From positions 1-44,657 of the forward strand of contig JACQOI010000216.1 of NCBI GenBank assembly GCA_016202615.1: a stretch of DNA of 44,657 nt, given 5' to 3'. The notes beneath the pieces were generated by a model that was not told the origin of the DNA, did no database searches, and saw nothing but the letters and a program-made list of their open reading frames with translations. This document shows, in pieces, positions 8,785-44,318 of the stretch (position 1 is its first letter; every line of letters begins with the position of its first letter). Made by a program: the position numbers and the translations under genes. The DNA is from Betaproteobacteria bacterium. GTDB taxonomy: Bacteria > Pseudomonadota > Gammaproteobacteria > Burkholderiales > SG8-41.

Positions 8785-8789
8785 GCGGA

Positions 8790-9443: not shown

Positions 9444-9812
9444 GGGTCTGGTTCCGGCGCCGGGCCGGAACGATAAACAACGATGCCATCTTCCTTCTGA
9501 TGGTGGATTGACGTGGAGCAAAATGCCTCACTCCGCACGCATGGTCGGGAGTTTCCTTGTTGCCGGCGACACCTCTTGTGCGCGGATACAGGGAAAGAGG
9601 TATTGGAACAGGACTTCCGTGCCAACTCAAGAAGCAACGGCAGTATCCGTTCCCTCGCCCGTGAGCATGCCTACTCCGGGGTGCCTGCCTACGGCCCTGA
9701 AACGCGTGCGCAGAGTTCCTTTGCGAACAACGCGATGCGCGCGCCCGAAACCCCGGCGAGGTTTCAAGGCATACTACGAGGGGCGACTGACCACCGGGAT
9801 CGCGGGAATTCA
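9444..9812. promoter_or_regulatory. Divergent intergenic region (369 bp) between ydcF-like (-) and the GT-C-like membrane protein gene (+); presumed divergent promoters
   Basis: One of only six noncoding gaps over 100 bp in the window, flanked by divergently oriented genes. Contains a GC hairpin GTTCCGGC-N5-GCCGGAAC at 9451-9471. No confident -35/-10 assignment. Confidence 0.35.
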
Positions 9813-11381: not shown

Positions 11382-11413
11382 TTCCGCCAATGATTGCGAC
11401 TTAGCCTGAAAAG

Positions 11414-14100: not shown

Positions 14101-14140
14101 TTGGCTGATTCCAGCGGCGTCTCCGGAAGCCCCCTCGAAA

Positions 14141-14246
14141 TCCCTCCCCTTCAAGGGGAGGGCTAGGGTGGGGATGGGTTAAAACAACGCGATGTGTATT
14201 CGCTCGCCCCACCCCCATCCTGATCTTCCCCCTGAGAGGGAAGGGA
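14141..14246. repeat. Inverted doublet of a ~38-bp G/C-tract repeat (REP/BIME-like)
   Basis: Copy A, 14141-14179: TCCCTCCCCTTCAAGGGGAGGGCTAGGGTGGGGATGGGT, containing the hairpin CCCTCCCCT-TCA-AGGGGAGGG. Copy B, 14207-14246: its reverse complement reads TCCCTTCCCTCTCAGGGGGAAGATCAGGATGGGGGTGGGG. The two copies are tail-to-tail with a 27-bp spacer. Confidence 0.6.
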
Positions 14247-26943: not shown

Positions 26944-27558
26944 TCACTGCGGCTGCCGCCGGTTGTCGATCGTTCTTATCACCCGTGCCGGCGCGCCGGC
27001 TGCGACATGATAGTCCGGGATATCGCTCGTCACCACCGAGTTGGCCCCGATCACGCAGTTCCTCCCGATCGTGACGTTCGGCAGTATCGAGACATTGATG
27101 CCTATCCAGGTGCCGTCGCCAATGCTGACGGGGCCCGGCGAGAACATGTACTGGTCCTTGATCGGCAGTTCCCGGTTCGCATAACCATGGTAACAATCGC
27201 CAATGAAAACCCGGTCTGAGATCATCACGTCGTTGCCAATGCGTATGTCGTTCATGCAGGCGAACGTTGCGAACCGGCCGATGTAGCAATTGTCGCCGAT
27301 GGCGAAGTTGGGGGACATAACGACATCGGGGGCGTTTTTCTGGTAATTAACGGGCAGCATGCTGATCCAGCAGAATTCCGCGATGAAAACGTTGTCGCCT
27401 ATCGTCACGCACTCCGGATGGTTGATTTTTATGCCGCGCTTGAGAATGACGCCGCGGCCCTTGTGCTTCAGGGCCCGGCGCAGGGGCAGTGAGCGCAGTC
27501 GCTCCACCCACAGCTCCATGCGGTTGAGCAATTGAATCAAGGTCTGGGCTGACGGCAT
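26944..27558 (-). CDS. Left-handed beta-helix (hexapeptide-repeat) O-acetyltransferase, 204 aa
   Basis: Hexapeptide repeats IGDNVFI, IGDNCYI, IGNDVMI, IGDGTWIGINVSILPNVTIGRNCVIGANSVV. Resembles maltose/galactoside acetyltransferase. Confidence 0.85.
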   Translation of the reverse strand: MPSAQTLIQLLNRMELWVERLRSLPLRRALKHKGRGVILKRGIKINHPECVTIGDNVFIAEFCWISMLPVNYQKNAPDVVMSPNFAIGDNCYIGRFATFACMNDIRIGNDVMISDRVFIGDCYHGYANRELPIKDQYMFSPGPVSIGDGTWIGINVSILPNVTIGRNCVIGANSVVTSDIPDYHVAAGAPARVIRTIDNRRQPQ

Positions 27559-29278: not shown

Positions 29279-29485
29279 TTCCGGCGCCCCCGAATCAACC
29301 GCCCGGCCGCTCGCCGCGGCCGCCAAAGTCCTGCTGCCGTCACAAAACCGGCGGCGTCAGGAGCGAAGAACAGCAGCGACGTTTGGAACGGCCATAGGAT
29401 AGCAGCGATTACCTGCGCGGATACTTTCCGGGATCGCCTCGATGAAATTCAGCCGCGCTTTGTTATCGAATTTGCGCGCGCGAAC

Positions 29486-31444
29486 TCATAGTCCGGTCAG
29501 AAGCTCTATTCTGTTTGCCTCGGATAGGCTCGCGGGGGGCTTCCGGTTTTCCATTACGATGCTTCTCAATGAAATCACTTTCTTACTCGGAACCGGCTTT
29601 TTACTTAGAATGCTTCGCCGATAATCTTCGCCGATCCGCTTTACCTTCTGCTTGGGAGATATGAACCTGTAATAACTGAAGGCTTCCCTCCTCTTGTACA
29701 GCAATATGACATAGTACTCGAGCAGCAATAGCAACTTGATTATGGGATACAGTAAAATCCGCGGAACCCTGGCGGCGAGGGGCGAAGGGATGATTTTTCG
29801 CTGAATGAAGAGCGAGGCAAACGGATAAAACGACGTCTTCCATTTTCGCGTTTTTATCTTTCTGATGATGATGTCTCTTATGCTTTCGTTCCCAAAGACC
29901 GGGGTTGGTTTAAAAATGATGCTTTCTACTTCGTGCGCGGCATAGGCTGAAGTTTGTGCGCCGTTATTTCTTCTGCCGGTTTCCTTGAGATAATATCTCA
30001 TCGCCTCCAGTTGCGCCAACAAATCCCAAAATAGTAATTCACTGACGGGGGCGCCGTTCAAGTTCACGTAGGATAATTTGTAGCTGGGAGCCGTGAATAC
30101 GTTTTCCAGGTAATCTTCTTCGTCGTCGACGGTGCTCCCGATTACACCGACTTGCTGACCATATTCGTAAAGCGGGGTCCCGGGAAACGGGATCGCGTAC
30201 ATCAAATCCTTGCCCTCGGCAGGATGAGAGTGGGTGGCAAGCGCGATTTCAGCCATCAATTTGCCCGTCTCTTTGGCGGTTTCTTCCGTTTCGCCGGGCA
30301 TGCCGAACAGGATGGCTAACGGGGAAAATATCTTGCGGTCCCTGCACCATTTCACGGCGTTTATCACCTGTTCCCGCTTGAATTTCTTCTCCATCAGATC
30401 AAGAATATCTTGGCTGCCCGACTCGATGCCGAATTTCAACGCAACACAGTTATTGTCCGCATAAAATTTGATCGATTCGGGCGTAACAGTGTCGCACCTG
30501 ACCCCGGTGGCGGCCCACAGCATATCGTGCTTTTTCATGATTGCCGCGAACTCGAATGCCTGTTTCTTGTCCGAACCGAAATTTTCGTCCGAAACCGATA
30601 TGAACCCGACGTCGTGATTGTTTTTCAGATACAAAACATGCTCTTCGAGTTCCGGCACATTCCCGGCACGAAACCCTTTGGTCGGGCGTTGACAAAAGGT
30701 GCATCGGGCCACGCAACCTTTATTGACCATCAGCATTGCTATATTCGGTTTTCTTCCGCTTTCGTGCGCCCGGGGATCATGGTTGAACCAATGCGATTCA
30801 CGAGCCGGCCTGAAATAATTTTTCAGTAACTCAGGTTGATCTTGTAACCCTTTCTTGAGCAAATCGTAATCGGGCACCAAAGACATGTCCGATGCGGGCA
30901 GTTTCTCGCCAAATCCGGTAAACGAGAATTCACCTGCCGCATTGAGGAATGCCAAGCCTTTGATGTCGCCAAGAACACCGGGATCGATGGTTCTGCCGTG
31001 TTTTTTCGTGTAGTCCAGCAATTTGACCCACGCAATTTCGCCGTCACCCGCCACGCAAATGTCAACGTCGGTTTTCTTGAGTACGATATTTGCCGATGCA
31101 GCCAGATTCCCTCCCAAAACCATCATGGTGTCCGGGCAGGCGCTCCTGATGATGCGCGCATATTTTTTGACCCGGCCGTAAGTTCCCGATGTAACGGCGC
31201 TGAGCCCTACGATGTCGGGTTTGCTGCTCTGAAAATACGCACGAATTTCGTCGTCTGACGGAAGCAGCATGTCCATGTCGTAAAAATCGAGTTCATCCCG
31301 CTTATAGCCGTTTTTCCACATCCATTGCGCCAGCGCGGTAATTCCAAACTTGGGCAAAACCGGAAGGTTTCCCAGCCCTCGCACCTTGTTTGTGAGGTCA
31401 AAATGCACCGGTTCCCCGGGTACGCTGCACAACACAATCTTCAT
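29486..31444 (-). CDS. B12-binding-domain radical SAM enzyme (class B), with ~130-aa hydrophobic/basic C-terminal extension, 652 aa
   Basis: ATG 31444 is preceded by AAGGAG (31455-31450, 5-nt spacer). B12-type segment PDIVGLSAVTSGTY...MMVLGGNLA. Cluster motif NKGCVARCTFCQR; GMPGETEET. Paralog of the 31638-33638 product. Lower G+C than the island (27-32 per 60 nt in four hand-counted lines). Confidence 0.85.
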   Translation of the reverse strand: MKIVLCSVPGEPVHFDLTNKVRGLGNLPVLPKFGITALAQWMWKNGYKRDELDFYDMDMLLPSDDEIRAYFQSSKPDIVGLSAVTSGTYGRVKKYARIIRSACPDTMMVLGGNLAASANIVLKKTDVDICVAGDGEIAWVKLLDYTKKHGRTIDPGVLGDIKGLAFLNAAGEFSFTGFGEKLPASDMSLVPDYDLLKKGLQDQPELLKNYFRPARESHWFNHDPRAHESGRKPNIAMLMVNKGCVARCTFCQRPTKGFRAGNVPELEEHVLYLKNNHDVGFISVSDENFGSDKKQAFEFAAIMKKHDMLWAATGVRCDTVTPESIKFYADNNCVALKFGIESGSQDILDLMEKKFKREQVINAVKWCRDRKIFSPLAILFGMPGETEETAKETGKLMAEIALATHSHPAEGKDLMYAIPFPGTPLYEYGQQVGVIGSTVDDEEDYLENVFTAPSYKLSYVNLNGAPVSELLFWDLLAQLEAMRYYLKETGRRNNGAQTSAYAAHEVESIIFKPTPVFGNESIRDIIIRKIKTRKWKTSFYPFASLFIQRKIIPSPLAARVPRILLYPIIKLLLLLEYYVILLYKRREAFSYYRFISPKQKVKRIGEDYRRSILSKKPVPSKKVISLRSIVMENRKPPASLSEANRIELLTGL

Positions 31445-31637: not shown

Positions 31638-33638
31638 ATGCGTATCTCTCTTCTGACCGTACCGGTCGAGACGAATTACATGGATTTCCTTCCCGAGGTC
31701 CGCGCGGAAACCGACATCCTGGTTCCATCGACGCGTTCCGAAGGCCAGCTGCCGGTGATACCCAAGATCGCCATCGTCAGCCTCATCAAATGGATGGAGC
31801 GCCACGGCTACACACGGGATCAGTACGATTACTACGACGTGGACATGCTCCTGCCCTCGGACAAGGAGTTGCTTGACTATTTCAAGAGCTACAACCCGAC
31901 TATCATTGGCCTGAGCGCGGTGGTCTCAACCTGCTACGCCCAAGTCAAACGGATCTCGAGGCTTCTTCGCCAAGCCTGCCCGGACGCCTGGATCGTGTTG
32001 GGCGGTAGTCTTACCGCGTCCTCCAATTTGATCCTGCGCAAGACGGAAGTGGACATTTGCGTGGTCGGCGACGGCGAGATCGCCTGGGTCGATTTCCTCG
32101 ATTACGTGAAGGCCCGCGGCCGCAAGAAGGACTTCAACGCGCTGGGCAATATCACGGGCCTTGCTTTCCTCGACGATGCGGGCGAGCTGCGCTTCACCGG
32201 TTATGGAAAGCAGATTCCCGCCGAACTCAACCCCTTTCCCGACTACGACATCCTCAAGGCGGGGCTTAGGACCCGTCCGCAGGAATTTGCGAATTACTTC
32301 CGCCCCGGTCTGGGATCAACGCACTTCCTGACCGATCCCCGTTCCCTTGAGCCACATCGTCGACCGATGCTCGCCCAGTTGTGGAGTTCCAAGGGCTGCG
32401 TCGCTCGCTGCACCTTCTGCCAGCGTTCCACCAAGGGTTACCGCGTCCTGGGCGTGGATTCGTTGGACGACCATTTGAAGATGCTCGCGAAGCGCTTCAA
32501 CGTCGGCTATATCCACATCCTGGATGAAAATTTTTCCTCCGACAGGGAATATGCCTACGAGCTTGCCCGAACCATGAAAAGGCATGACATGCTGTGGATG
32601 GCCAGCGGCGTTCGCGTCTCCTCGGTCGATTACGACGATATCAAATTCTACAAGGAGCATGGCTGCGTTAGCCTCAAATTCGGCGTCGAATCCGGCAGCC
32701 AGAAAATCATGGACGTGATGGAGAAGAAGTTCACGGTCGAGCGTGTTTTTCAGACTCTTAAACACTGCGCGGATCTGGATGTTTACTCCCCGCTTGCGGT
32801 CATGGTCGGTATGCCCGGCGAGACTTGTGAGACCGCGGCCGAAACTGGCCGCTTTCTCGGGCGCATTGCGCACATGCAAGGTGTTGATCCACAATGGCTC
32901 GGCCTTTCCTGTTTCTACGCACTGCCGCTGACTGGCACTCCGTTATATGTCTACGGCCAACAGGCCGGTGTTATCGGCAAGACCCCGGAGAAGGAGGAGG
33001 ATTACCTGCTCTCTGTCTCCGGTAGCGGGGCCAGCAAAATCAACTACGTCAATCTTAACGGTGCGAACGTCCGCGATGTGGTCTGGTGGGACTGGCTGGT
33101 CAAGCTCGAGGCCCAACGCACTTTCTTTGATCTCGTGAAAAAAACGCCCTTGGGCGAGCCTGGCCACATGCAGAGAGTCCTCGTCAGCGATAGGGAACGC
33201 GAGATAGTGGGCCGTGCGCTGACTCTTCGCAAGATTCTGGACAGCGTCAAGAATTGCAATCTACGCGTGGTCAAGGCCAAGATCTTCTACTGGGTTGAGG
33301 ATGTGCTCATGGAACGCGTTGTAGTCCCGAGCAGGCTTGTTGCGAGTCTCCCGCGCTGGCTCATCTATCCTCTCTTCAAGAATCTGGTCTATGTCAACTT
33401 TTTGGTACAGGGGTATGCTTTGCGCGCGTTCGGCAAGTCCTTCAGCCTGTGGAAGAAGTGGCCAGCCGTCGAGCCCGTACGTGAGGCGCAGAAAGTCCAT
33501 GCGCGCGAAGTGCAGAGAGTTAACGTGAAACTCAACATTCAAAGATCTCTGCGGAGGGTGGTGCGTGAGCGCACCCGAGAACATCCGCCCGCCTCGCAAA
33601 CCGAAGCAAACCAGGACATTCTCTCCATCGGTCTCTGA
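31638..33638 (+). CDS. B12-binding-domain radical SAM enzyme (class B), paralog of 29486-31444, 666 aa
   Basis: Colinear with the minus-strand paralog from Met1: PTIIGLSAVVSTCY...WIVLGGSLT, an identical SKGCVARCTFCQR motif, GMPGETCET, and a shared C-terminal PPAS..EAN...L..GL ending. Confidence 0.85.
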   Translation: MRISLLTVPVETNYMDFLPEVRAETDILVPSTRSEGQLPVIPKIAIVSLIKWMERHGYTRDQYDYYDVDMLLPSDKELLDYFKSYNPTIIGLSAVVSTCYAQVKRISRLLRQACPDAWIVLGGSLTASSNLILRKTEVDICVVGDGEIAWVDFLDYVKARGRKKDFNALGNITGLAFLDDAGELRFTGYGKQIPAELNPFPDYDILKAGLRTRPQEFANYFRPGLGSTHFLTDPRSLEPHRRPMLAQLWSSKGCVARCTFCQRSTKGYRVLGVDSLDDHLKMLAKRFNVGYIHILDENFSSDREYAYELARTMKRHDMLWMASGVRVSSVDYDDIKFYKEHGCVSLKFGVESGSQKIMDVMEKKFTVERVFQTLKHCADLDVYSPLAVMVGMPGETCETAAETGRFLGRIAHMQGVDPQWLGLSCFYALPLTGTPLYVYGQQAGVIGKTPEKEEDYLLSVSGSGASKINYVNLNGANVRDVVWWDWLVKLEAQRTFFDLVKKTPLGEPGHMQRVLVSDREREIVGRALTLRKILDSVKNCNLRVVKAKIFYWVEDVLMERVVVPSRLVASLPRWLIYPLFKNLVYVNFLVQGYALRAFGKSFSLWKKWPAVEPVREAQKVHAREVQRVNVKLNIQRSLRRVVRERTREHPPASQTEANQDILSIGL

Positions 33639-33657: not shown

Positions 33658-34440
33658 CTACAAGGTGAAGCCGTCGTCTACTACGATGTTCTGCCCGGTC
33701 ACGAAAGCCGACCAATCCGACAGCAGGTAAATCAAGGTGCCGCTGATGTCGGTGCGGTCCAGCATGCCCTTGGTCTGGCAATGCCGCCGGTAGTTCTCGA
33801 GGAAAACGGCGGGCTGCCCGTCTTCAATGCCGCCCGGGCTGACGGAGTTTACGCGCACGCCGGTCCCCTTGAGCAGCTTCGCCAGATAGCGCGTCAACTG
33901 GATAATCCCGGCCTTGATCACCGCGTACTCGACCGGCATTGTCATGCTCGTGCCCTCATAGATTTCGAAGCGTGGCGCTATCACGCCGTAGATCGAAGCG
34001 ATGTTGACGATGCTGCCGCCGCCGGTCCGCGACATGGCCTTGGAAAACCGCTGGCAGGTGAGGAAGTAGCCGCCAAGATGAGCGTCGATGTTGGCGCAGA
34101 AATCGCCGTACTCGACATCGAAAAACTGGCGCCCGTGGTTGGGAGCGTAATTGGGAGTGCGAGGATACGCCGCATTCACGAGGCCGTCGATGCGTCCATA
34201 TCGCTTGATGGTCTCACCGACCAGGGCCTCCACGCTTTCCGGCTGGGTAATATCGACCGCGTATGCTGTCGATTTGCTTTTGGGGGCCAGCTTCAGCAAG
34301 TCGGCTAGCGCTGCTTCCGCCGAAGCAAGCGCGACGTCTGCAAGGATCGCAGTGCCCCGCTGCAATGCGATGGCCTTGGCGAACTCCCTGCCCAGCAGAC
34401 CGGCCCCGCCGGTTACGACGATGACCTTGGCTTCAAGCAT
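33658..34440 (-). CDS. Short-chain dehydrogenase/reductase (PtmA-like, as found beside CMP-nonulosonate synthetase genes), 260 aa
   Basis: MLEAKVIVVTGGAGLLGREFA Rossmann motif, NIASIYG and YAVIKAG (YxxxK). The track start is the GTG at 34449; I prefer the ATG at 34440, which overlaps the upstream gene by 8 nt. Confidence 0.8.
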   Translation of the reverse strand: MLEAKVIVVTGGAGLLGREFAKAIALQRGTAILADVALASAEAALADLLKLAPKSKSTAYAVDITQPESVEALVGETIKRYGRIDGLVNAAYPRTPNYAPNHGRQFFDVEYGDFCANIDAHLGGYFLTCQRFSKAMSRTGGGSIVNIASIYGVIAPRFEIYEGTSMTMPVEYAVIKAGIIQLTRYLAKLLKGTGVRVNSVSPGGIEDGQPAVFLENYRRHCQTKGMLDRTDISGTLIYLLSDWSAFVTGQNIVVDDGFTL

Positions 34441-35149
34441 GTTTTGCACGCGCCTTCATCAGGTGCTCAACGATCATGAAATCCAATTCCGAATCGATGT
34501 CCACGGAGCGCTCCTCCGGCATTACGTAGAGCAGTGTATCCGGATTGAACAACGTGTCGCTGCCGAACAGCGACTGGCGGTGCCATACATAGATTGAAGC
34601 GTTCATATCGTAGCAGGCCGGGGCGTCCTGGCGTCGGGCAATCGGTCGTGGCGACGGTTTTGACAGCCGCGCGATGCCGTCCTGCCCGACTTCGACCAGG
34701 TTGAAATAGGGCGATCGCCGCGCAGGAGCTCCCGTAATGACGTTCGAAACGCGGCGGTCTTCAAGCATTGCGGTGGCGTTGACAATGTCCTGCGGTTCGC
34801 GCAGCGGTGAGGTCGCATCGAGATCAACGACGGTATCAAAGTTGTGCCCGGCAAGGCGCTCTGTCTCGGTCACGCAATGCCGGATCGCGGGCAGTTTGGG
34901 CGCCGTGTCGCTTGCCAGTTCGGCCGGCCGCTCGATCAGGTGATCGGCGCCGTAATTACGCGCAGCGGCCAGGATTTCAGACGAATCGCTGCTCACCGCG
35001 ATGGCGTCGAACAGGCCACTGGCGCGCGCCTGTTCGAGGCTGTGAGCAAGCAGCGGTCTGCCGAGCAGCGGGCGCAGATTCTTGTTTGGCACGCCCTTGG
35101 ATCCGCCGCGAGCACAGAGGGTGCAGAGCCGTTTCACGGCGTCACCCAT
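34433..35149 (-). CDS. legF: Acylneuraminate/nonulosonate cytidylyltransferase (CMP-legionaminic acid synthetase candidate), 238 aa
   Basis: CARGGSKGVPNKNLRPLLGRPLLAHSL is the CTP_transf_3 (NeuA) N-terminal signature; also DATSPLR. Sits in an operon with leg genes. The symbol could equally be neuA. Confidence 0.8.
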   Translation of the reverse strand: MGDAVKRLCTLCARGGSKGVPNKNLRPLLGRPLLAHSLEQARASGLFDAIAVSSDSSEILAAARNYGADHLIERPAELASDTAPKLPAIRHCVTETERLAGHNFDTVVDLDATSPLREPQDIVNATAMLEDRRVSNVITGAPARRSPYFNLVEVGQDGIARLSKPSPRPIARRQDAPACYDMNASIYVWHRQSLFGSDTLFNPDTLLYVMPEERSVDIDSELDFMIVEHLMKARAKHA

Positions 35150-35186
35150 GTTGCGTCCTCAATCGAAGGCCTCACGTCGATCTGCA

Positions 35187-37310
35187 TCAGTGGGCCAGGG
35201 TATAGCGCGTATAGCGGTCCACATCGGTATCGGCGAACAGCTCTTCGGTGCCGTCGGCGCCCTCCACGTTCCGAAACAGGCTTTCCAGGTTGCTGATGCG
35301 CGTGACGATCTTGGACAGCGCGTTGACGTCGGTGCCGTAGCGGCGGAACTGGTCTTCGCGCGTCCGCAGCTGTTCGTCCGTGTAATAAAACCGGTATGCC
35401 CTGGGCTGGTTAAATTGAAATGTGCTGAGCGCCGTGCCTTCCGGAGAACGCAACCAAGCGGGCACATCGTGTCTGAGAAGCAGGGTCACAGGCTCGGTAT
35501 TGCCCCTGGAATTCAGCAGTCCCTCGATACGCGCCTGGCAGAAGGCGGATATCGTATCGATTTCCGTACCCGCGACGGCGAGCGCGTCGTCCTGGAGCCG
35601 CTCCCCGGCCAACATGCGCAGCTCTGCAACCAGGTAGCGGATCCAGTCTCCGGCCTGGAAAGCAACGCTTTTCGATTTGTACTTGTAGATCAGGTTGCCG
35701 CCCACCTCACCCCGACGCAGGCGCTGGAAGTTGACCTCGTCCTTGTAATGCTCCAGCAACTCGTCTTCGGAGGCCCACAATTCCCCCTCGGTCTCGGCCA
35801 TGAAGTCGGCGTATAGGGCGCGAATTGTCTCAGGCGCCCGGGCAAGGGATTCGTAAAGCCGCCGTAGCAGGGTGGCGCGCTTGATGCCCAACGAAAGCGC
35901 GTAGCGGAACAATTCCTCGAACGGACGTCCGTTGTGGATGCTTTCCACGATCAGCGCGAAACCCCGCAAAAAAAGATAATCCGCGAATGACATGGTATTG
36001 GTCCGGACGCAGACCTCTTCATAATCAAGCACCCGCCCGCCATCATAGTCGCCGAAGTTCAGCGGCACGATACGAAACCGGCCTTCGATGCCAAAACGGC
36101 GGCGGTAGTCGGGTTCCTTGAACTCGGTGCCATTCAGCAGCATCAGCGTATAGATAGTCACCGACGACGCGCCTGACTCGATCACCGCCTCGACGCCGTT
36201 AACGAAGCTTTCACGGGTTTCGCCGGGCAGTCCGATAATCAATTCCGCCTTGGTGGAGCGGCCGGCCTCACTGAGGTGTTTGTTGATATCGATGTAGTGT
36301 TCGAGCTTGATGTTGGAACGGCGAATGTTTTCCAGGACGCCCTTGTCCATGGACTGCACCGACATGTTCACCGAGAACATCTTGCCGAGGATGCCGGTTA
36401 TTTCGATCACGCGTTCCTTGGCGTTCTTCCCGGTGGTTGCCATTACCTGGCGCGGCCAGTCAAATTTCTGCTGCGTTTCGTAAAGAGCTTCGCAGATCTC
36501 GCGATCGCGCGGAAACATCCCGAAATTGGTGTCCGCGATATGCAGGTTGGACACCTTCAATTGGGCGGCGCGGGGTGCAATGTAAAAAATTTCCTCCCGC
36601 ACCCGCTCAATGGAAAACGAATTCATCTTTTGGAAGTAATCTGCGCCGGTATGGCAGAACGAGCACCTGAACGGACACCCGCGGTTAGTCTCGATAAACG
36701 GTGTGAGTCGACCGTCGAAGAAGTGCTCCAGCATGCCGTTTAAATAGGGCGAAGGGATGACGTCCAGATTACGCAGACGTGCAGGCGCCTGCGTCTTTAC
36801 CAGAGTCGGGGAGGCCGATCCGCGCGTTGACGGTTCGATGAAGATAATGCCCTCGATGGGCGCGTCGAATACCGTCCGGCCGCCTTCGCGGGCATCGAGC
36901 ACGCGCCGGACGAGATTGGCGAACGCGACCTCGCCTTCGTACTCGATATGAGCGTCCGTCGCTGGCCGGCGCAGCAAAAACTCGATCCTCAGCGCATCAT
37001 CATGGGGGAAGTTTGTGCCGCCTTGCACCACCACCGCAGCCGGGTTCGCGGCACGCGCCGCTGCAGCGACGCGCTCCGACAGGTTCGAGTTCCATGAATA
37101 GTTCGAAAGACCCAGTATGTCCGGCGGGTCAGCCTTGATCGCGGCCAGGGCAACGGCCGGATATTTGTACAGAGAAACCCTGACCGCATCGCCGAACTGC
37201 TGCTTGGCGTAGCTGCCCACGAACCCGATGTTGATGGGGATGGTGTCAGACACCAGGATGATTGAATCATGGGTCAGATCGCACAGGCAGATCTTCAGCG
37301 GCCTGCTCAC
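35187..37310 (-). CDS. B12-binding-domain radical SAM enzyme with ~300-aa C-terminal helical extension, 707 aa
   Basis: Trimmed to the GTG at 37310-37308 (VSRPLKICLCDLTHD), which overlaps the upstream TGA (GTGA). B12-type segment PDILGLSNYSWNSNL...VVVQGGTNFP. Cluster motif NRGCPFRCSFCHTG; GLPGETRESF. G+C 33-35 per 60 nt in two hand-counted lines, versus 40 per 60 in legC. Confidence 0.85.
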   Translation of the reverse strand: MSRPLKICLCDLTHDSIILVSDTIPINIGFVGSYAKQQFGDAVRVSLYKYPAVALAAIKADPPDILGLSNYSWNSNLSERVAAAARAANPAAVVVQGGTNFPHDDALRIEFLLRRPATDAHIEYEGEVAFANLVRRVLDAREGGRTVFDAPIEGIIFIEPSTRGSASPTLVKTQAPARLRNLDVIPSPYLNGMLEHFFDGRLTPFIETNRGCPFRCSFCHTGADYFQKMNSFSIERVREEIFYIAPRAAQLKVSNLHIADTNFGMFPRDREICEALYETQQKFDWPRQVMATTGKNAKERVIEITGILGKMFSVNMSVQSMDKGVLENIRRSNIKLEHYIDINKHLSEAGRSTKAELIIGLPGETRESFVNGVEAVIESGASSVTIYTLMLLNGTEFKEPDYRRRFGIEGRFRIVPLNFGDYDGGRVLDYEEVCVRTNTMSFADYLFLRGFALIVESIHNGRPFEELFRYALSLGIKRATLLRRLYESLARAPETIRALYADFMAETEGELWASEDELLEHYKDEVNFQRLRRGEVGGNLIYKYKSKSVAFQAGDWIRYLVAELRMLAGERLQDDALAVAGTEIDTISAFCQARIEGLLNSRGNTEPVTLLLRHDVPAWLRSPEGTALSTFQFNQPRAYRFYYTDEQLRTREDQFRRYGTDVNALSKIVTRISNLESLFRNVEGADGTEELFADTDVDRYTRYTLAH

Positions 37311-38221
37311 GATTTCACCCAGCTTCCTTGAGCTGCCGCCGCTTCGATGCAATGAATAAGCTCGACGATTCGTGCTCCTTCGGTGAGAGAACAAAAGTCC
37401 GCGCGGTCTTTTGAGAGCACCGCTTCGAGCTGCAGGCGGTAGGTGGTGTCGCGCTCACAAGCGAACGGCTCTTCAACCCCGTCTCGCCACAATGCGCCGC
37501 TGACGAGGTCGGCCCGGTAACTATGCGAATCGGTATCGACCGCGATTTCGCGCCGCGGCGCCCGGTCGAGATAATTCATCTGGAGAGTCAGCATCGGGCA
37601 GCGCTCGAGTTGCATCAGGATCGCCCAGGCGTCGTCGCTATCGATGTCGAGGCTGCTGAAATGCCCGCCGAGGGCCGCCACGCGCTGCCAATTCCCGAAC
37701 AACCACAGCGCGTAATCGAGTTCGTGGCTCAAGTCGCGCAATACGCCGCCGCCCGCGTCCCGGCGCGCCGAATAGGATTGCCGGTAATCGCGCTCCGGCC
37801 GCCAGTCCGGCAAATACTGTCCGACATGGACTTGGGCCGAAATCACCTTCTCCGCGGCAAGGACGCGGCGCAAAGCCTGGATGACCGGATGAAAGCGCAA
37901 GTTGTAGGCGACGAAAATGTCCGCAAACGGCCAGTCCCGCACCGGCGCAGGCCGATCGGACAAAGGTTTCTCGACCAGCACCGTGCCGGCGTACCCGCAG
38001 TCGGCCAGGCGCTCCAGGGTCTCGATATGCCGCGATGTTTCGTTTGAGACGACGACCAGTTCGGGCCTCAGATCGGCCAGCGCGGCGTCCATCCCCGCAT
38101 AGGCAGGGTAACTGCATTCCGGATTGCGCGTTACTGCGCCAACCCGTACCCCGCGTTCGGCGAGCAGTTGCGCGTGGCGCGCCCCGATCGAACCGAAGCC
38201 GATGATTACCGCGCTTTTCAC
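37307..38221 (-). CDS. Gfo/Idh/MocA-family NAD(P)-dependent oxidoreductase, 304 aa
   Basis: MKSAVIIGFGSIGARHAQLL Rossmann N-terminus and the EKP motif (VLVEKPLS). GTG start 38221-38219 overlaps the upstream TGA (GTGA). Confidence 0.8.
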   Translation of the reverse strand: MKSAVIIGFGSIGARHAQLLAERGVRVGAVTRNPECSYPAYAGMDAALADLRPELVVVSNETSRHIETLERLADCGYAGTVLVEKPLSDRPAPVRDWPFADIFVAYNLRFHPVIQALRRVLAAEKVISAQVHVGQYLPDWRPERDYRQSYSARRDAGGGVLRDLSHELDYALWLFGNWQRVAALGGHFSSLDIDSDDAWAILMQLERCPMLTLQMNYLDRAPRREIAVDTDSHSYRADLVSGALWRDGVEEPFACERDTTYRLQLEAVLSKDRADFCSLTEGARIVELIHCIEAAAAQGSWVKS

Positions 38222-39270
38222 GGTGCGAATTTGCCTTCATATTCGTTCCGGGCGCGCTCCAGGTCGTCGATGCGGCCGATGTCGAGCCAGTATTCGCGCA
38301 GGGGAAAAACGGCCGCCTGACCGCCGCCGTCCATCACCCGGTTGAAGAGATCGGGCATGTCGATCGCGGAGGCCGCCGGCAGATAATCGAGCGCGCCCGG
38401 ATTGAGTACGTAAATGCCGGCATTGACGAAAAACTTCTGCGCCGGTTTTTCCTTGACCCCCACCAGCCGATGGCCTTCGATGCTGACCATGCCATAGGGA
38501 ATTTGCTGCTCGTATTCACGTACGCACATGGTCGCTGCCGCGTTATGGCTGGCGTGGAAATCGAGCAAGTGCTGGAAATTGATCTTCGTCAGCAAATCGC
38601 CGTTCATCACGATCAGCGGCAGCCGCGGCGCCGGTACGAGCAGCCTCAACGCGCCCGCGGTTCCGAGTTGCTGCTCTTCCTCGAGATAGCGAATCTTCAC
38701 GTTCCACTCGCTGCCGTCGCCGAAATGCTCCTTGATCATGTCGGATTTGTAGTTCACGGAAAAGTGGAACTGGCTGAAGCCGTATTCGATGAAGTTTTCG
38801 AGAATAGTTTCCAGTATCGGCTTGTCGCCGACGCGCAGCATCGGCTTCGGACATTCGTCCGTGAGCGGGCGCAGACGGCTGCCGAGGCCGCCCGCCATGA
38901 TCACGACCTGGTTCTGCCTGTTCACGGGTTGCAGCAGATCGTCCATTATCTCGACCCCGACCAGCCGGCCTTCCTCATCGAGTATCGGTATCTGATGCAG
39001 CTGCTTCTGGCGCATCATCAGCAAAATGCCGTCGCGCGACTCGTTGATGGTCGCAGTCGTCGGGCGGGGATTCATGATCGACTCGACCGGCGCTTCGAGA
39101 TTGGTCCCACGCAGGATCGCCCGCCGCACATCGCCGTCCGTCACGGTCCCGATCAGGCGTGACATGTTGTCGACGACCAGCGCGATCTGCATTGCGCTCG
39201 CATCGATCATCCGGATCGTGTCGCGGATCGTCGTCGATCCGCGCACCACGCTTTGCTTCCAGTTATGCAT
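38218..39270 (-). CDS. CBS-domain-containing sugar-phosphate nucleotidyltransferase (PtmE-like, GDP-sugar supply for the legionaminic acid pathway), 350 aa
   Basis: Trimmed to the ATG at 39270-39268 (MHNWKQSVV), an 8-nt overlap with the upstream gene. The N-terminus carries a tandem CBS-like pair (IALVVDNMSRLIGTVTDGDVRR; HQIPILDEEGRLVGV), followed by VVIMAGGLGSRLRPLTDECPKPML. Confidence 0.8.
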   Translation of the reverse strand: MHNWKQSVVRGSTTIRDTIRMIDASAMQIALVVDNMSRLIGTVTDGDVRRAILRGTNLEAPVESIMNPRPTTATINESRDGILLMMRQKQLHQIPILDEEGRLVGVEIMDDLLQPVNRQNQVVIMAGGLGSRLRPLTDECPKPMLRVGDKPILETILENFIEYGFSQFHFSVNYKSDMIKEHFGDGSEWNVKIRYLEEEQQLGTAGALRLLVPAPRLPLIVMNGDLLTKINFQHLLDFHASHNAAATMCVREYEQQIPYGMVSIEGHRLVGVKEKPAQKFFVNAGIYVLNPGALDYLPAASAIDMPDLFNRVMDGGGQAAVFPLREYWLDIGRIDDLERARNEYEGKFAP

Positions 39271-39907
39271 CGCCGCGCATTCTTCGGGCGGGGACGCCGG
39301 CGACCCAGCCGAGATCATCGACGTCGCGGCATACCACAGCGCCCGCGGCTACCAGGCAACGCCGGCCGATCCTGAGGCCCTGGATGATAGTGGCGCCGGT
39401 GCCGACATGCGTTTCATCGCCCACGGTCACGTTTGCCGACAATGTACAACCGGGGGCAATGTGAACGTGGCGCCCGATTTCGCAATCGTGGTCGACCGAT
39501 GCGCGCGTATTGATGATGGTATTGTCGCCAATATGGCTGCCGGGCTGGATTACCACTCCCGCCATTGCGTGGACACCCTCGTCGAGAACCGCATCCCGGG
39601 CGACGACCGCCATCGGATGAATCACCTGCTCAAAACCGTAGCCGAGAGCCTTGAATTTTTCAAACAGAATTTTCCGCTCGTCCATGGATTGCACCGAGCC
39701 GACCGCGTTCACCAGCCGGACTGCCGACGGTGCATAGCGCGCAAGAGCCGTGTCGTCCCCCAACACGCGATAGCCAAGCAAGGTGCGGTCGAACATATTC
39801 TGATCCTGGGTCGTGAGACCGATCACATTTTTCTCCAGCAGGCGCAGCACATCGAGCACGACCTTGGCGTGTCCCCCGCTGCCGAGCACGATAATCGGGA
39901 GTGCCAT
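39263..39907 (-). CDS. legH: NeuD/PglD-family sugar N-acetyltransferase (LegH candidate), 214 aa
   Basis: Trimmed to the ATG at 39907-39905 (MALPIIVLGSGGHAKVVLDVL), a 1-nt TAATG overlap with the upstream stop. C-terminal hexapeptide repeats (IGDNTIINTRASVDHDCEIGRHVHIAPGCTL). Confidence 0.75.
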   Translation of the reverse strand: MALPIIVLGSGGHAKVVLDVLRLLEKNVIGLTTQDQNMFDRTLLGYRVLGDDTALARYAPSAVRLVNAVGSVQSMDERKILFEKFKALGYGFEQVIHPMAVVARDAVLDEGVHAMAGVVIQPGSHIGDNTIINTRASVDHDCEIGRHVHIAPGCTLSANVTVGDETHVGTGATIIQGLRIGRRCLVAAGAVVCRDVDDLGWVAGVPARRMRGDA

Positions 39908-40986
39908 TAGCTTATTGGATCCCCTGCGCCGAAATCCCTGGGAGCGGATTTGCCAAGCCAGTCCCACAGATACATCGGCGAAATCCCGGTTCCGGGACGC
40001 CTCACACCGACGTTATCTGAGGTAAGCAGCTCTCCCTTGCGGATCGGGCGCAACGCGACAATGCTTCTGCGGGCGATCGCGATGTTCTTTGATTCGGACG
40101 GCATCGGGCGTTTGATTCCGTCGCCGAGCGCGAGGCTCACCTCTCGCACTGATTTTATCATCGCGGCGAGTTCAGCCGGCTCCAGCGATGCGCGATGATC
40201 GGGACCGGGCAGGCCGCGGTCGAGCGTAAAGTGCTTCTCGATGATGGTCGCGCCAAGCGCGGTCGCGGCTACCGGTACGGCAATACCGGGCGAATGATCG
40301 GACAATCCGACCGGCAGGCCGAAACGTTCGCGCAGGGTATGCATCGCCCGCAGGTTTACTTCCTCGAACGGCGCCGGGTACTCGGTGGTGCAATGAAGCA
40401 GCGTGACCGTCGCCTGCAGCGCAAGTCGGCCGGCATCCGAGGCGAACGCCTGGCTGAAGGCAAGGCGCGAGGGCGGTGCTGCGGGCGTCGTCAGCCCGAA
40501 CGCAATCACGCCCAGCGCCTCCTCGATTTCTTCCGGGGTGCTCATGCCGGTGGAAACGATCAGCGGCCTGCCTTGTCTTGCCGCCTCCAGCAGCAGCGGC
40601 GCATTGGTGATCTCGCCCGAGGCAAGCTTGATGCGCGGGACGCCGAGCGTACCGGCGAGGAAACGCAGGCTGTCGATATCGAACGGCGTCGACAGAAATT
40701 CGATGCCGCGCACGCTGCACTGCTCGAACAGAACCCGGTGCGACTCCGTGCCGAGCTCGAGCTTTTTCAGCATTTCGAACTGCGATTCAGCGGCGTCCGT
40801 TGCTCTTGTCTGGTACTCGGCTTTCGGTGCCCCGCGCGTGGCGAGCTGGTCGGCCTTGAAGGTCTGGAACTTGACCGCGTCGGCACCTGCGTTAGCCGCC
40901 ACCTCGACCAGTTTGCGCGCCATGTCGAACGACCCGTTGTGGTTCACCCCGGCCTCGGCGATGATGTAAACGCGCTTATCGTCCAT
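39907..40986 (-). CDS. legI: Nonulosonic acid synthase, NeuB family with C-terminal SAF domain (legionaminic acid synthase candidate), 359 aa
   Basis: VYIIAEAGVNHNGSFDMARKLVEVAANAGADAVKFQTF is the NeuB signature; also LSDHS and C-terminal SAF-like IKRPMPSE...VRRPGTGISP. Start ATG 40986 is preferred; the alternative is ATG 41001. Confidence 0.9.
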   Translation of the reverse strand: MDDKRVYIIAEAGVNHNGSFDMARKLVEVAANAGADAVKFQTFKADQLATRGAPKAEYQTRATDAAESQFEMLKKLELGTESHRVLFEQCSVRGIEFLSTPFDIDSLRFLAGTLGVPRIKLASGEITNAPLLLEAARQGRPLIVSTGMSTPEEIEEALGVIAFGLTTPAAPPSRLAFSQAFASDAGRLALQATVTLLHCTTEYPAPFEEVNLRAMHTLRERFGLPVGLSDHSPGIAVPVAATALGATIIEKHFTLDRGLPGPDHRASLEPAELAAMIKSVREVSLALGDGIKRPMPSESKNIAIARRSIVALRPIRKGELLTSDNVGVRRPGTGISPMYLWDWLGKSAPRDFGAGDPIS

Positions 40987-42139
40987 CGCTACTCGCCGCA
41001 TCGAAAAAGTGCTTCTTGATCAGCGCCGGCGGATCGTCGAACCGTTTGATCGTCGCGAGAATGCGCCGCGAGCTTTCGCCGTCGCCGTACGGATTGACTG
41101 TATTGCTGCAGTTTTTGGTGAGCGCGGTACGGATCGCGGAGCTGATCGCGCTTGTCTCGGGATCGCAATTAATAACGGAGTCGGCCATCAACCGGCCTTT
41201 TTGCCGGTCGCCGATATTGACGGTTGGTTTCCTGAACGATGGCGCCTCGTACACTCCGCTCGACGAGTTGCCGACGATCGCATCGACCTGCGCCATCAGG
41301 CTCAGATAGCGCTGCTGGCCGAGCGACGCAAAGCCTCGCGCGTGGGAACGCGTCGCGACATAGTCATCCACCATCCGGTTCAGCTCGCGGCCGCCGGTGT
41401 CGGCGTTGGATTTGGTGAAAATCAAGCTGAACTGCTCGGCCGGCAGGCCATCCAACGCGGTCAGCAACGCCTGGAACTGTGCCCCCGCAGGCTCCGCATC
41501 GAGCGTCGGTGGGTGGAAAGTAATCAGCAAATTGCGTCGCCTGAAACGCAGTCCGAGCTGCTGTTCGAGCTCCGACCGATCCAGCAGTTTAGCGCGCTTG
41601 ATGGAGTCGATTCCCGGGCTGCCGACGTTGAATACGTGATCGGGATTTTCGCCAAGTTGTATGACGCGCCGTGCGGCATCCTCGTTCGTGACGAAATGCA
41701 GGTGCGACATCTTGGTGATGCTGTGACGGATCGCCTCGTCGTAGGCGCCCTCGGTGGTATCGCCGCCGGCAATGTGGGCGACCGGAATTTTCGCGACCAG
41801 CGCGGCCTGCGCCGCGGCGAAGATCTCGAAGCGATCGCCGGGCAGCACGACGAGGTCCGGACGCAGAGTGCCGAATGCCGCGCCGAAGCCGGTCACGCCG
41901 AGCCCGATCGACTTCGCAATTCCCGCGGGCGTGTCCGACTGCAGCGTATCGATGCGCGCGTCGATCCTGAAGCCGTCGGACTCGATGGCCTGGAAGGTGA
42001 GGCCAAATTCCGGCTCGAGGTGCATGCCGGTCACGGCGAGCTGCAGTTGGCAGTCGCGATCAGCCTGGATGTCCTTCATCAGCCAGTAAAGCAAGCCGTA
42101 ATCAGCGCGGCTGCCGGTGACGACGCAGATTTTTCTCAT
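40976..42139 (-). CDS. legG: Hydrolysing NDP-N-acetylhexosamine 2-epimerase (NeuC family; LegG candidate), 387 aa
   Basis: Trimmed to the ATG at 42139-42137 (MRKICVVTGSRADYGLLYWLMK), an ATGA overlap with the upstream stop. VLPGDRFE and HIAGGDTTEG are NeuC-typical. Confidence 0.9.
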   Translation of the reverse strand: MRKICVVTGSRADYGLLYWLMKDIQADRDCQLQLAVTGMHLEPEFGLTFQAIESDGFRIDARIDTLQSDTPAGIAKSIGLGVTGFGAAFGTLRPDLVVLPGDRFEIFAAAQAALVAKIPVAHIAGGDTTEGAYDEAIRHSITKMSHLHFVTNEDAARRVIQLGENPDHVFNVGSPGIDSIKRAKLLDRSELEQQLGLRFRRRNLLITFHPPTLDAEPAGAQFQALLTALDGLPAEQFSLIFTKSNADTGGRELNRMVDDYVATRSHARGFASLGQQRYLSLMAQVDAIVGNSSSGVYEAPSFRKPTVNIGDRQKGRLMADSVINCDPETSAISSAIRTALTKNCSNTVNPYGDGESSRRILATIKRFDDPPALIKKHFFDAASSDGR

Positions 42140-43314
42140 TGCTTGCCCGCCGCGAGAAACGGGCTGCTCGGGATGTTGATCAGGCGGCGCTCGAGGTCTT
42201 CTGCCGTGTCGAGCGGCATGCGCGGGCAGCTTTGGTACATCGGCAGGCGGTGCATCAAAGTCCATACCGGGCGCGCCATGATGCCCTGCGCATTGAGAGT
42301 ATCGAGCAACTGGTCTCTGCGATCCGACACTGCCGCGTCAAGCACCAATGCGTTCAGCCAGTAGTTGCTGCGCGCATGAGGCGGCTCGGTGAAAAAGCGG
42401 ACGCCGCGGACGCCGGAAAATGCGCTGCGGTAAGCGGCGGCAAGCTCGCGCTTACGGCGCACGAACTCCGGAAGTTGCTCGAGCTGGGCGCAGCCAAGCG
42501 CGGCGTTGATGTTTGGCAGCCGGTAGTTGTAGCCGACTTCATCGTGGACGAACGACCATTTGTGCGGCAGGCGCGCGGTCGTAGTGAGGTGCCTTGCGTA
42601 TTTCGCGAGCGCATCGTCATTCGTGAGCACGGCGCCGCCGCCGCCGGTGGTAACCACCTTGTTGCCGTTGAAACTCAGCGCCGACACCCTGCCGAAGATG
42701 CCGGTATGACTGTCCTTATAGAACGATCCAAGCGACTCCGCGGCATCCTCGATGACTACCAGCTTGAAACGCGCCGCAACCTCCAGCAGGTTTTCAATTT
42801 CCATCGGATGGCCGAAGGTATGCATCGGGACCGCGGCGCGGATTGTCGCCCCGGTTTTGCGATTGACGCACGTGCCGCCACGCACCTCGGCGGTATCGCC
42901 CAGGTAGTCCGACAGCTTGGCCGGGTCAAGGCCGAGCGTTGCGTTCGCGCTGTCGGCGAAATGCGGCGTCGCGCCACAATAGCTCACGGCATTGGCGGTT
43001 GCGATGAAAGTGAGCGCAGGGATCACGACCTCTTCGCCGGGCTGTACACCGGCGAGCTTGAGGCAGACGTGCAACGCCGCCGTGCCGTTGACTACCGCGA
43101 TCGCATGCCGCGCACCCGTGTATTCGGCGAGCTGCACTTCAAAACGGTCAACGTACTTGCCGTTCGACGACACCCAGCCGGTGTCGAGGCAGTCCTTGAC
43201 GTATTCCCATTCTTTGCCGATGAACCACGGTTCGTGGAGGGCGATATTGCCCTGCTTCCCGGGCAGTACCGTCCGGAGCGCTGCGATTACGGCATCGGGA
43301 TTCGGCGCGCCCAT
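42136..43314 (-). CDS. legC: DegT-family PLP-dependent aminotransferase (LegC candidate), 392 aa
   Basis: The track start at 43317 is a TTG. The ATG at 43314-43312 shares 1 nt with the legB TGA (TGATG). NGTAALHVCLKLAG, VIEDAAESLG, and SFNGNKVVTTGGGGAV (PLP lysine). Confidence 0.85.
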   Translation of the reverse strand: MGAPNPDAVIAALRTVLPGKQGNIALHEPWFIGKEWEYVKDCLDTGWVSSNGKYVDRFEVQLAEYTGARHAIAVVNGTAALHVCLKLAGVQPGEEVVIPALTFIATANAVSYCGATPHFADSANATLGLDPAKLSDYLGDTAEVRGGTCVNRKTGATIRAAVPMHTFGHPMEIENLLEVAARFKLVVIEDAAESLGSFYKDSHTGIFGRVSALSFNGNKVVTTGGGGAVLTNDDALAKYARHLTTTARLPHKWSFVHDEVGYNYRLPNINAALGCAQLEQLPEFVRRKRELAAAYRSAFSGVRGVRFFTEPPHARSNYWLNALVLDAAVSDRRDQLLDTLNAQGIMARPVWTLMHRLPMYQSCPRMPLDTAEDLERRLINIPSSPFLAAGKQ

Positions 43315-44318
43315 CAAATATTATAGGTATCCGCCCGGTACTTGTTGAGGTTGCCGGGCTCGCTGAACCAGGCGCAGGTCTCGGCAAGGCCGCGGCGTAA
43401 TCCATCACGGCCCGCGTAATGTGGCTCCCAGTCGAGTAGCGTGCGCGCCTTGGAGTTGTCGGCCCACAGCCGCTCGACTTCGCTGTTGGCCGGCCGCATG
43501 CGGATCTCTTCGGTCTCGATTTCGATGTCCCGGCCCATCACTTCGGCGATCAGCCGCGCCGTGTCCTGGATGCTGATTTCGAAATTGCTGCCGATATTGA
43601 TGACCTCGCCGACGGCGCGCTCGGAGTTTGCTACCGCGATAAAGCCGCGTATGGTGTCCGGGATGTAAGTGAAATCGCGCGTCGGGTGCAGCGTGCCGAG
43701 CTTGATGGTACGCCTGCCGCGCGCAATCTGGGTGATCACGGTCGGGATCAACGCGCGCGCGGACTGTCGCGGCCCGTAGGTATTGAATGGCCGGATGATG
43801 GCGACGGGCGTGCCGAATGCACGTTGGAACGATAGCGCAATCTGATCGGCACCGATTTTTGTAGCCGAGTAAGGCGACTGTCCCTGCAGCGGGTGGTCTT
43901 CGGTAATTGGTACAAAGCGCGCAGTACCGTAGACCTCGCTGGTCGAAGTATGGACCACCTTTGCGACACCCAGTTCACGTGCCGCTTGCATCACGTTCAA
44001 CGTGCCCTTGATATTGGTATCGACGTAAGTGTCGGGCGAATGATAGGAATAGGGGATTGCGATCAGCGCCGCCAGATGCAGCACGGTGTCGCAGCCCTGC
44101 ATCGCGGTCTTTACGCCATGCGGATCGCGGATGTCGCCGGCGAATACATCGAGCGACTGCTTGATCTCGTCGGCGGCATGGTCGAGCCAACCCCAGGAAT
44201 TGAAGGAGTTGTAAAGGACGAATGCGCGAACCTGATAGCCCCCGCGCACCAGCGCTTCGACGAGATGCGAACCGATAAAGCCGTCGGCGCCGGTCACCAA
44301 TATTCTTTTCTGGCCCAT
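43314..44318 (-). CDS. legB: NAD-dependent NDP-GlcNAc 4,6-dehydratase (LegB candidate), 334 aa
   Basis: ILVTGADGFIGSHLVE, YNSFNSWGWLD, STSEVYG, YSATKIGAD. First gene of the operon (ATG 44318-44316), followed upstream by a 259-bp noncoding region. Confidence 0.8.
   Translation of the reverse strand: MGQKRILVTGADGFIGSHLVEALVRGGYQVRAFVLYNSFNSWGWLDHAADEIKQSLDVFAGDIRDPHGVKTAMQGCDTVLHLAALIAIPYSYHSPDTYVDTNIKGTLNVMQAARELGVAKVVHTSTSEVYGTARFVPITEDHPLQGQSPYSATKIGADQIALSFQRAFGTPVAIIRPFNTYGPRQSARALIPTVITQIARGRRTIKLGTLHPTRDFTYIPDTIRGFIAVANSERAVGEVINIGSNFEISIQDTARLIAEVMGRDIEIETEEIRMRPANSEVERLWADNSKARTLLDWEPHYAGRDGLRRGLAETCAWFSEPGNLNKYRADTYNI

Follow-up and report, generated by a model that had tools for sequence, protein, structure and literature searches.

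A TokK/CysS-type cobalamin radical SAM gene within a legionaminic acid operon of a betaproteobacterium

The operon and its eighth gene

The stretch of DNA analysed here, called the window, is contig JACQOI010000216.1 (44,657 nt) of the Betaproteobacteria bacterium assembly GCA_016202615.1. The gene under study occupies positions 35187..37310 on the minus strand, starts with GTG and stops with TGA. It encodes a 707-residue cobalamin-type radical S-adenosylmethionine (SAM) enzyme of the TokK/CysS/KedN5-like clade, and is gene 8 of 10 co-directional, tightly packed genes in the order legB-legC-neuC-neuB-neuD-ptmE-ptmF-X-legF-ptmA, where X is the gene itself. It represents a new branch, as yet uncharacterised and associated with nonulosonates, of the cobalamin radical SAM methylases typified by TokK and CysS.

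The start codon (37310-37308) overlaps the TGA (37309-37307) of the upstream ptmF-like Gfo/Idh/MocA oxidoreductase gene as GTGA (37307..37310, minus strand), an arrangement typed as translational coupling. The stop codon lies at 35189-35187. A 37-nt spacer (35150..35186, minus strand) with a GAGGA ribosome-binding site follows, and a gene for a cytidine monophosphate (CMP)-nonulosonate synthetase then begins with an ATG at 35149. Both junctions agree with those given in an earlier note, made from the sequence alone. Orthologs are 707 residues long and can be aligned from residue 1 (for example, MNKPLKIFLGDLTHD versus VSRPLKICLCDLTHD), so the GTG was favoured over an upstream TTG at 37394. The longer open reading frame (ORF) of 735 residues from that TTG was rejected, as the N-termini of the orthologs match the GTG start. 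The ratio of nonsynonymous to synonymous substitution rates (dN/dS) was 0.08 in comparison with the closest homolog (85% identical) and 0.17-0.21 with more distant ones; these values mark the ORF as a real gene under purifying selection.

The earlier note had described the gene as poorer in G+C than the adjacent leg genes. Its G+C content is marginally lower, 58.6% (35.1 per 60 nt) versus 59.9-63.3%, although the neighbours hold 36-38 per 60 nt and not the 40 that had been given. G+C at third codon positions (GC3) is 74.9% versus 70.6-79.6%. As this value falls within the range of the neighbours, there is no compositional anomaly, and compositional evidence for a recent foreign insertion, at which the note had hinted, was rejected.

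The first five genes of the operon, which like the rest lies on the minus strand, exceed curated NCBIfam cut-offs. They encode the NAD-dependent 4,6-dehydratase LegB (43314..44318; TIGR04180, 530 bits, cut-off 475), the aminotransferase LegC (42136..43317; TIGR04181, 548 bits, cut-off 420), the hydrolysing 2-epimerase NeuC/LegG (40976..42265; TIGR03568, 463 bits, above cut-off), a LegI-like nonulosonate synthase of the NeuB family (39907..41001; TIGR03569, 474 bits, cut-off 400) and a LegH-like N-acetyltransferase of the NeuD/PglB family (39263..39967; TIGR03570, 225 bits, cut-off 161). Within these reading frames, the probable start of neuC/legG is the ATG at 42139, overlapping legC as ATGA, and that of the neuD/legH-like gene is the ATG at 39907. 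Family profile searches identified the sixth product as a PtmE-like protein with CBS and sugar-1-phosphate nucleotidyltransferase domains (38218..39318). The PtmF-like oxidoreductase gene (37307..38221) also begins in a GTGA overlap, with ptmE. Downstream of the radical SAM gene are the LegF/PtmB-like CMP-nonulosonate synthetase gene (34433..35149; CTP_transf_3, PF02348, 78 bits and above the Pfam cut-off; PseF model, 126 bits and under its cut-off) and, as the last gene, one for a PtmA-like short-chain dehydrogenase/reductase (SDR) (33658..34449; NF006619, 331 bits, cut-off 255; FlagModPtmA model, 251 bits). The junctions read, in order, TGATG, ATGA, TAATG, GTGA and GTGA, followed by the 37-nt spacer. 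A promoter and terminator scan of the operon gave matches at the level of shuffled controls, and none was called in the spacer.

LegB, LegC, an N-acetyltransferase, a 2-epimerase, a NeuB-type synthase and a CMP synthetase thus lie together, as in a legionaminic acid (Leg) operon of the type that uses guanosine diphosphate-N-acetylglucosamine (GDP-GlcNAc). All functions of the CMP-legionaminic acid pathway of Campylobacter jejuni (LegB, C, H, G, I and F with PtmE, PtmF and PtmA) are present in the operon, as a single transcription unit. To our knowledge, that characterised pathway has no radical SAM step. Tailoring in C. jejuni by PtmG and PtmH gives N-acetimidoyl and N-methyl groups via non-radical enzymes. 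A literature search for a link between radical SAM enzymes and legionaminic, nonulosonic or pseudaminic acid biosynthesis retrieved no relevant paper from the library that was searched.

Domain architecture and nearest characterised relatives

The translation contains DILGLSNYSWNSNL, VVVQGGTNFP and NRGCPFRCSFCHTG, from which the earlier note had proposed a B12-like N-terminal domain and a cluster-binding motif; both held. A Rossmann-type cobalamin-binding (Cbl) domain spans residues ~1-160 (36831..37310, with PF02310 at residues 22-133). The partial TIM-barrel radical SAM core spans residues ~200-440 (35991..36713, with PF04055 at residues 207-371; secondary structure from an AlphaFold2 (AF2) model) and carries the CxxxCxxC [4Fe-4S]/SAM motif (C212, C216 and C219; 36654..36677), whose three cysteines are invariant in 24 orthologs. 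A mostly helical C-terminal domain, supported by Foldseek alignment to TokK and CysS, forms residues ~441-707 (35190..35990), and all of these segments are on the minus strand. The Radical_SAM profile PF04055 scored 56.2 bits against a cut-off of 29.5. The B12-binding profile PF02310 scored 26.6 bits, under its gathering score of 32.1; it is precomputed for nearly all homologs, and in a structural match over the full length the N-terminal domain overlays the Cbl domains of both TokK and CysS. The C-terminal domain is conserved among orthologs.

TokK, CysS and KedN5 are radical SAM methylases that depend on cobalamin and methylate unactivated sp3 carbons iteratively. Among NCBIfam models the KedN5 family (NF033712) was the best match, with 222.2 bits over residues 39-493, and all other radical SAM families remained below 50 bits. 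A PDB sequence search with a profile of 24 orthologs returned TokK (E = 2.7e-63) and CysS (E = 7.8e-53), followed by AprD4 (E = 3.6e-6). The AF2 model, built from the ortholog alignment, had a predicted local distance difference test score (pLDDT) of 86.5 and a predicted template modelling (TM) score (pTM) of 0.87. Foldseek aligned it to TokK and CysS over ~725 columns with TM scores of 0.69-0.77, versus ~0.43 for OxsB and TsrM; TokK matched with E = 1e-34, TMq 0.72 and TMt 0.77 over ~727 columns, and CysS with TMt 0.77.

The three-domain architecture of TokK, ThnK and CysS is therefore present in the Foldseek alignments, including the large C-terminal domain. The earlier note could not assign this region of ~270 residues; the full-length superposition on TokK and CysS identifies it as their third domain, and on the predicted model it is the equivalent of the domain that binds substrate in those enzymes. 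In TokK this domain forms much of the substrate channel (bioRxiv 10.1101/2021.07.10.451909).

TokK and ThnK, which methylate the C6 side chain of carbapenems (PDB 7KDX and 7KDY), share with the window enzyme the same three domains, the CxxxCxxC motif and a Trp under the cobalt, and TokK is 24% identical to it with TM scores of 0.72-0.77 over the full length. The Trp is W73 (37094-37092), which lies within an invariant SNYSWNS motif and aligns with TokK Trp76. The latter sits 3.8 Å below the cobalt and was reported to be conserved only in TokK, ThnK and CysS (bioRxiv 10.1101/2021.07.10.451909). TokK differs in its context, a pantetheinylated carbapenam substrate and an antibiotic cluster, whereas the window gene is surrounded by genes for sugar biosynthesis. 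CysS, the iterative methylase of the cystobactamid alkoxy group (PDB 9N1B-D), is of the same clade and shares this architecture; its identity to the window enzyme is 19-20%, its substrate is a pantetheinylated methoxy-aminobenzoate and it has no link to nucleotide sugars. CysS methylates an sp3 carbon iteratively, and for KedN5 the proposed role is assembly of an isopropoxy group on a naphthonate.

The class B methylases GenK, GenD1 and Fom3 act on aminoglycoside sugars or on a CMP-linked phosphonate, and show, as precedents, that cobalamin-radical SAM enzymes can C-methylate carbohydrate carbons as well as a cytidylylated substrate. They are remote in sequence: GenK and Fom3 were not retrieved in searches with the window protein, and the PhpK and Sden_1168 P-methyltransferase families gave less than 50 bits on it.

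Genome context of homologs

A search with the window protein returned more than 2000 homologs at E < 1e-10, of which the best 120 were examined. These are about 700-720 residues long and 52-87% identical to it, and none is functionally named. A genome scan of species representatives yielded at least 79 loci, here numbered with the prefix L. Statistics were derived from tblastn with the Leg proteins of the window; de novo clustering of the ORFs gave the same pattern, with spurious antisense ORFs on some high-G+C loci. Loci with at least 10 kb of flank were counted, and neuB was scored within 10 kb. It was present at 9/10 loci with orthologs of at least 50% identity (10/10 have neuB, neuC or a CMP synthetase gene), at 14/20 with 36-50% identity and at 2/33 below 36%. 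Over the unfiltered 80 loci the counts were 24/38 versus 2/42 (Fisher p = 1e-8). The radical SAM gene is therefore a repeated component of nonulosonate operons and not a one-off. The earlier note had named recurrence in leg, pse or neu operons elsewhere as a check on its reading, and the outcome was positive.

Hosts of nonulosonate-linked orthologs include Magnetovibrio, Pelagibacteraceae, a Sulfuritalea metagenome-assembled genome (MAG), Deltaproteobacteria, SAR324, Elusimicrobia, Omnitrophota, Planctomycetia, Hydrogenedentes, Nitrospinaceae and many Terriglobia (Acidobacteriota). The ortholog is often interleaved with pathway genes, as in legC-X-legF, neuB-X-neuC, neuC-X and 4,6-dehydratase-X. 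Its adjacent gene varies (legC, neuB, neuC, the 4,6-dehydratase gene or legF), and gene order is compatible with action either before or after the NeuB condensation.

Five extra metagenome contigs bearing homologs (L080-L084) were inspected. On L081, L082 and L083 the ortholog is fully embedded in a nonulosonate operon. On L080, which carries the 85%-identical homolog, a ptmF-like gene lies upstream with two genes between (L080 1461-5296). These encode a fusion of ATP-sulfurylase, PUA and PK domains (sulfurylase/APS-kinase) and a sulfatase-family protein, and hint at a sulfated or otherwise differently decorated glycan.

Homologs below 36% identity form a separate, equally conserved group. Members at 31-35% identity (L040, L046, L060 and L065, at about 7300-10000, and L061) are often immediately preceded by genes resembling those for glucose-1-phosphate cytidylyltransferase and cytidine diphosphate (CDP)-glucose 4,6-dehydratase, which suggests a sister subfamily that tailors CDP-6-deoxyhexoses. 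Some of these distant members are named 'cobalamin-dependent protein' by NCBI. The wider family appears to consist of sugar-tailoring enzymes, with the orthologous group of the window gene as its nonulosonate-associated branch.

A link to vitamin B12 was seen in Pelagibacteraceae (SAR11). In L004, L005 and L007 a TonB-dependent receptor gene, whose best family match is BtuB, directly precedes the ortholog. An adenosylcobalamin (AdoCbl)-II riboswitch lies upstream of this receptor gene with 69-102 bits against a gathering score of 36.5. The riboswitches in these single-cell genomes are at L004 7391-7472, L005 5318-5398 and L007 7662-7756 on the plus strand, and at L009 448-528 on the minus strand. 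In L004 and L005 a small membrane protein of 161-164 residues, with no family match, follows the receptor. Whether btuB is regulated by B12 in SAR11 has been stated to be not known (PMC9296465). Judged from these predicted neighbours, the riboswitch and BtuB-like receptor provide contextual support for use of cobalamin by the orthologs.

Other tailoring genes accompany the orthologs at several loci. Magnetovibrio-type leg operons (L001 123-1976 and 12176-14600; L081 1-2000 and 12184-14569) carry a second radical SAM paralog, and in the same operons two CTP_transf_3 (CMP synthetase-like) genes flank ptmF; two different activated nonulosonates may be made there. Trios of a WbuX-type N-acetyl-sugar amidotransferase with HisH-like and HisF-like proteins, of the type that forms acetamidino groups, recur at L001 19120-21660, L002 12823-16660, L004 3929-6470, L033 13607-16380 and L068 17361-20100. 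PIG-L/LmbE-type deacetylases and NodU-like carbamoyltransferases also recur (L002 12130, L003 16631, L009 8228). None of the trios, deacetylases or carbamoyltransferases is present in the window.

Outside the operon, the window is taken up by a large cluster for surface polysaccharide with a Wzx-type flippase, glycosyltransferases, a CDP-glucose pathway (20560-22421), a TylCIII-like C-methyltransferase, a radical SAM/SPASM protein and two further B12-radical SAM genes. The C-methyltransferase (6146-7690, minus strand; Methyltransf_14/13) is a conventional SAM-dependent sugar enzyme, and the glycan of the window probably carries C-methyl branches from both non-radical and radical routes. The two further B12-radical SAM genes (29486-31444, minus strand, and 31638-33638, plus strand) are divergent paralogs that are 44% identical to each other. 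They match the enzyme studied here with 22-23% identity over the N-terminal domain and core only, as the earlier note had observed in finding no colinearity beyond the core. The pair shows only weak PhpK/HpnJ/BchE-like matches, and its G+C contents of 50% and 57% are clearly under the window mean of 60%. Homologs of the pair co-occur with the family in L005, L011, L013, L033, L036, L069 and L082. The radical SAM/SPASM (twitch-domain) protein is encoded at 25907-26923 (minus strand), and a 582-residue protein with no Pfam or NCBIfam match at 27578-29326 (minus strand). The L011 homolog of the latter is 42% identical, and one acetyltransferase gene separates it from the radical SAM ortholog. A low-G+C island at 11001-14154 (49-53% versus about 60-63% on both sides) encodes a GT2 glycosyltransferase, an SDR of the GDP-mannose-dehydratase type and a nucleotidyltransferase, and is a better candidate for recent acquisition than the radical SAM gene.

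Proposed function, alternatives and implications

The gene probably encodes a cobalamin-dependent (class B) radical SAM C-methyltransferase with an accessory, tailoring role in the legionaminic acid pathway of the GDP-GlcNAc type. This reading was preferred because of the similarity to KedN5, TokK and CysS, the invariant W73, the tight operon, the low dN/dS, the recurrent linkage to neuB and the B12-uptake context of orthologs. The earlier note's interpretation, an enzyme that modifies the nonulosonate or a precursor, is supported. Methylation of an sp3 carbon, which it had listed among the possibilities, would be in keeping with the closest characterised relatives, all three of which perform such chemistry. 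The methyl transfer, the attack site and the product are inferred by analogy, and the substrate is most probably a Leg pathway intermediate.

By analogy with TokK and CysS, one SAM would methylate cob(I)alamin. A second SAM would be cleaved at the [4Fe-4S] cluster held by C212, C216 and C219, giving a 5'-deoxyadenosyl radical. This radical would abstract hydrogen from an sp3 carbon in one of three candidate substrates, namely a GDP-linked 6-deoxy-hexosamine intermediate, free Leg or CMP-Leg. The substrate radical would then take the methyl group from methylcobalamin, and the cycle might be repeated. The expected product is a C-methylated legionaminic acid derivative, which would be incorporated into the surface polysaccharide encoded by the window. 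The sites were ranked tentatively, with the terminal 6-deoxy/C9 methyl or another backbone carbon placed ahead of the N-acetyl methyl. Family members have a 4,6-dehydratase gene nearby both where they are linked to nonulosonate genes and where they are linked to CDP-glucose genes, which bears on the terminal 6-deoxy/C9 methyl as a candidate. A carbinol carbon, as in GenK or Fom3, and the N-acetyl methyl, which as in TokK would be alpha to a carbonyl, are further candidates by analogy.

Several observations weigh against this reading. The known substrates of the TokK/CysS clade are pantetheinylated small molecules and not sugars, and the KedN5 score of 222.2 bits is far below the curated cut-off of 700 for membership of NF033712. 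Two active-site residues of TokK, Trp215 after the cluster motif and Arg280, which binds the carboxylate and anchors the substrate, are replaced by T221, which is invariant, and M290, so substrate handling differs from that of the known enzymes. Judged from the aligned residues, the cofactor scaffold is shared with TokK and the substrate pocket is not. The slot in the operon is not conserved either. In the Sulfuritalea locus L011 (JADJVS010000014, 9986-16600), which is near-syntenic with the window and has Leg proteins 64-82% identical to those of the window, ptmF adjoins the CMP synthetase gene. The ortholog there, 57% identical, lies ~3 kb away on the opposite strand, after homologs of the window ORFs 27578-29326 and 26944-27558. 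This arrangement indicates that the radical SAM gene was relocated or replaced within the lineage. Some Acidobacteriota loci have no LegB or LegC within 10 kb, so the 6-deoxy methyl target may not always exist. On L084 (region 5973-13210) the ortholog (~56% identity) lies among remnants of an integrase, a DDE transposase and Transposase_mut, without nonulosonate genes nearby. Only a fragment of a DegT aminotransferase gene is close to it, and the L084 ortholog is probably what is left of a glycan island that is decaying or was mobilised. A cultured host of the ortholog was sought via cluster names and homolog lists, and only MAGs and single-amplified genomes (SAGs) were found.

An enzyme of the same family and pathway could instead perform epimerisation, deoxygenation/dehydration or carbon-skeleton rearrangement of a Leg intermediate. 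OxsB and AprD4 set the precedent, with non-methylating cobalamin-radical reactions on sugars and nucleosides. Non-methylases do occur among class B and related radical SAM enzymes, OxsB and AprD4 appear among the weaker structural or sequence matches, and the active-site residues differ from those of TokK, all of which would suit such a reaction. Similarity to TokK, CysS and KedN5 is nevertheless far stronger (222 versus <50 bits; TM 0.72-0.77 versus 0.40-0.46), and the Trp under the cobalt, typical of the methylase clade, is invariant; we regard a non-methylating enzyme as unlikely. Also improbable is a methylase that acts on another sugar of the polysaccharide, such as a CDP-6-deoxyhexose, or on the assembled glycan, with its place in the leg operon reflecting only the clustering of glycan genes. 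The association of neuB tracks the orthologous group and not glycan clusters generally, and orthologs are interleaved with leg and neu genes in many unrelated phyla whose clusters are otherwise different. This must be set against the members below 36% identity, which follow CDP-glucose genes and not neuB, the CDP-glucose pathway at 20560-22421 of the window itself, and the varying position of the gene relative to leg genes among genomes.

A chance passenger, inserted recently and without a part in the pathway, would fit the slightly lower G+C content (58.6% versus 60-63%), the lower identity to the Sulfuritalea copy than flanking leg genes show (57% versus 64-82%) and the transposase surroundings on L084. 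It is hard to reconcile with a GC3 equal to that of the neighbours, a start/stop overlap on one side and a 37-nt spacer with a ribosome-binding site on the other, strong purifying selection with all invariant family residues retained, and nonulosonate linkage that recurs across phyla. A passenger gene is accordingly very improbable, and the C-methyltransferase of the Leg pathway remains the preferred reading.

A possible product is suggested by Magnetospirillum gryphiswaldense, in which two mass-spectrometric studies report ulosonic acids with an apparently ten-carbon (C10) backbone and offer no explanation of their biosynthesis (PMC8157484; bioRxiv 10.64898/2026.04.20.719630). The same sources give CMP-activated species at m/z 679.198, 693.214 and 707.230, spaced by CH2, and a shift of the backbone marker fragment from 297.09 to 311.10. 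Exactly those masses would result if an enzyme of the kind proposed C-methylated the backbone. The orthologous group could conceivably be the source of these C10 ulosonic acids, through C-methylation, possibly iterative, of the terminal 6-deoxy/C9 methyl or another Leg backbone carbon; this is a speculative lead, held with some doubt. No Magnetospirillum protein was present among the best 120 homologs listed for the window protein, for the Magnetovibrio ortholog or for a distant Rhodospirillales relative.

Nonulosonic acids (such as sialic, legionaminic and pseudaminic acid) do much to determine the bacterial surface, susceptibility to phages and recognition by the immune system. All tailoring of them known to us is by conventional acyl-, amidino- and methyl-transferases. 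If the proposed function is correct, it would be the first radical SAM step in the biosynthesis of sialic-acid-like sugars. Carbon-carbon bond formation would join the nonulosonate repertoire, and methyl-branched or chain-extended sugars would be predicted. Glycan tailoring would be B12-dependent in SAR11, SAR324, Nitrospinota, Acidobacteriota and other abundant environmental bacteria, and the chemistry of the cell surface in very abundant bacteria of sea and soil would be coupled to the supply of vitamin B12. With thousands of well-conserved homologs and no member characterised, the family is one in which a single biochemical study would annotate many genomes.

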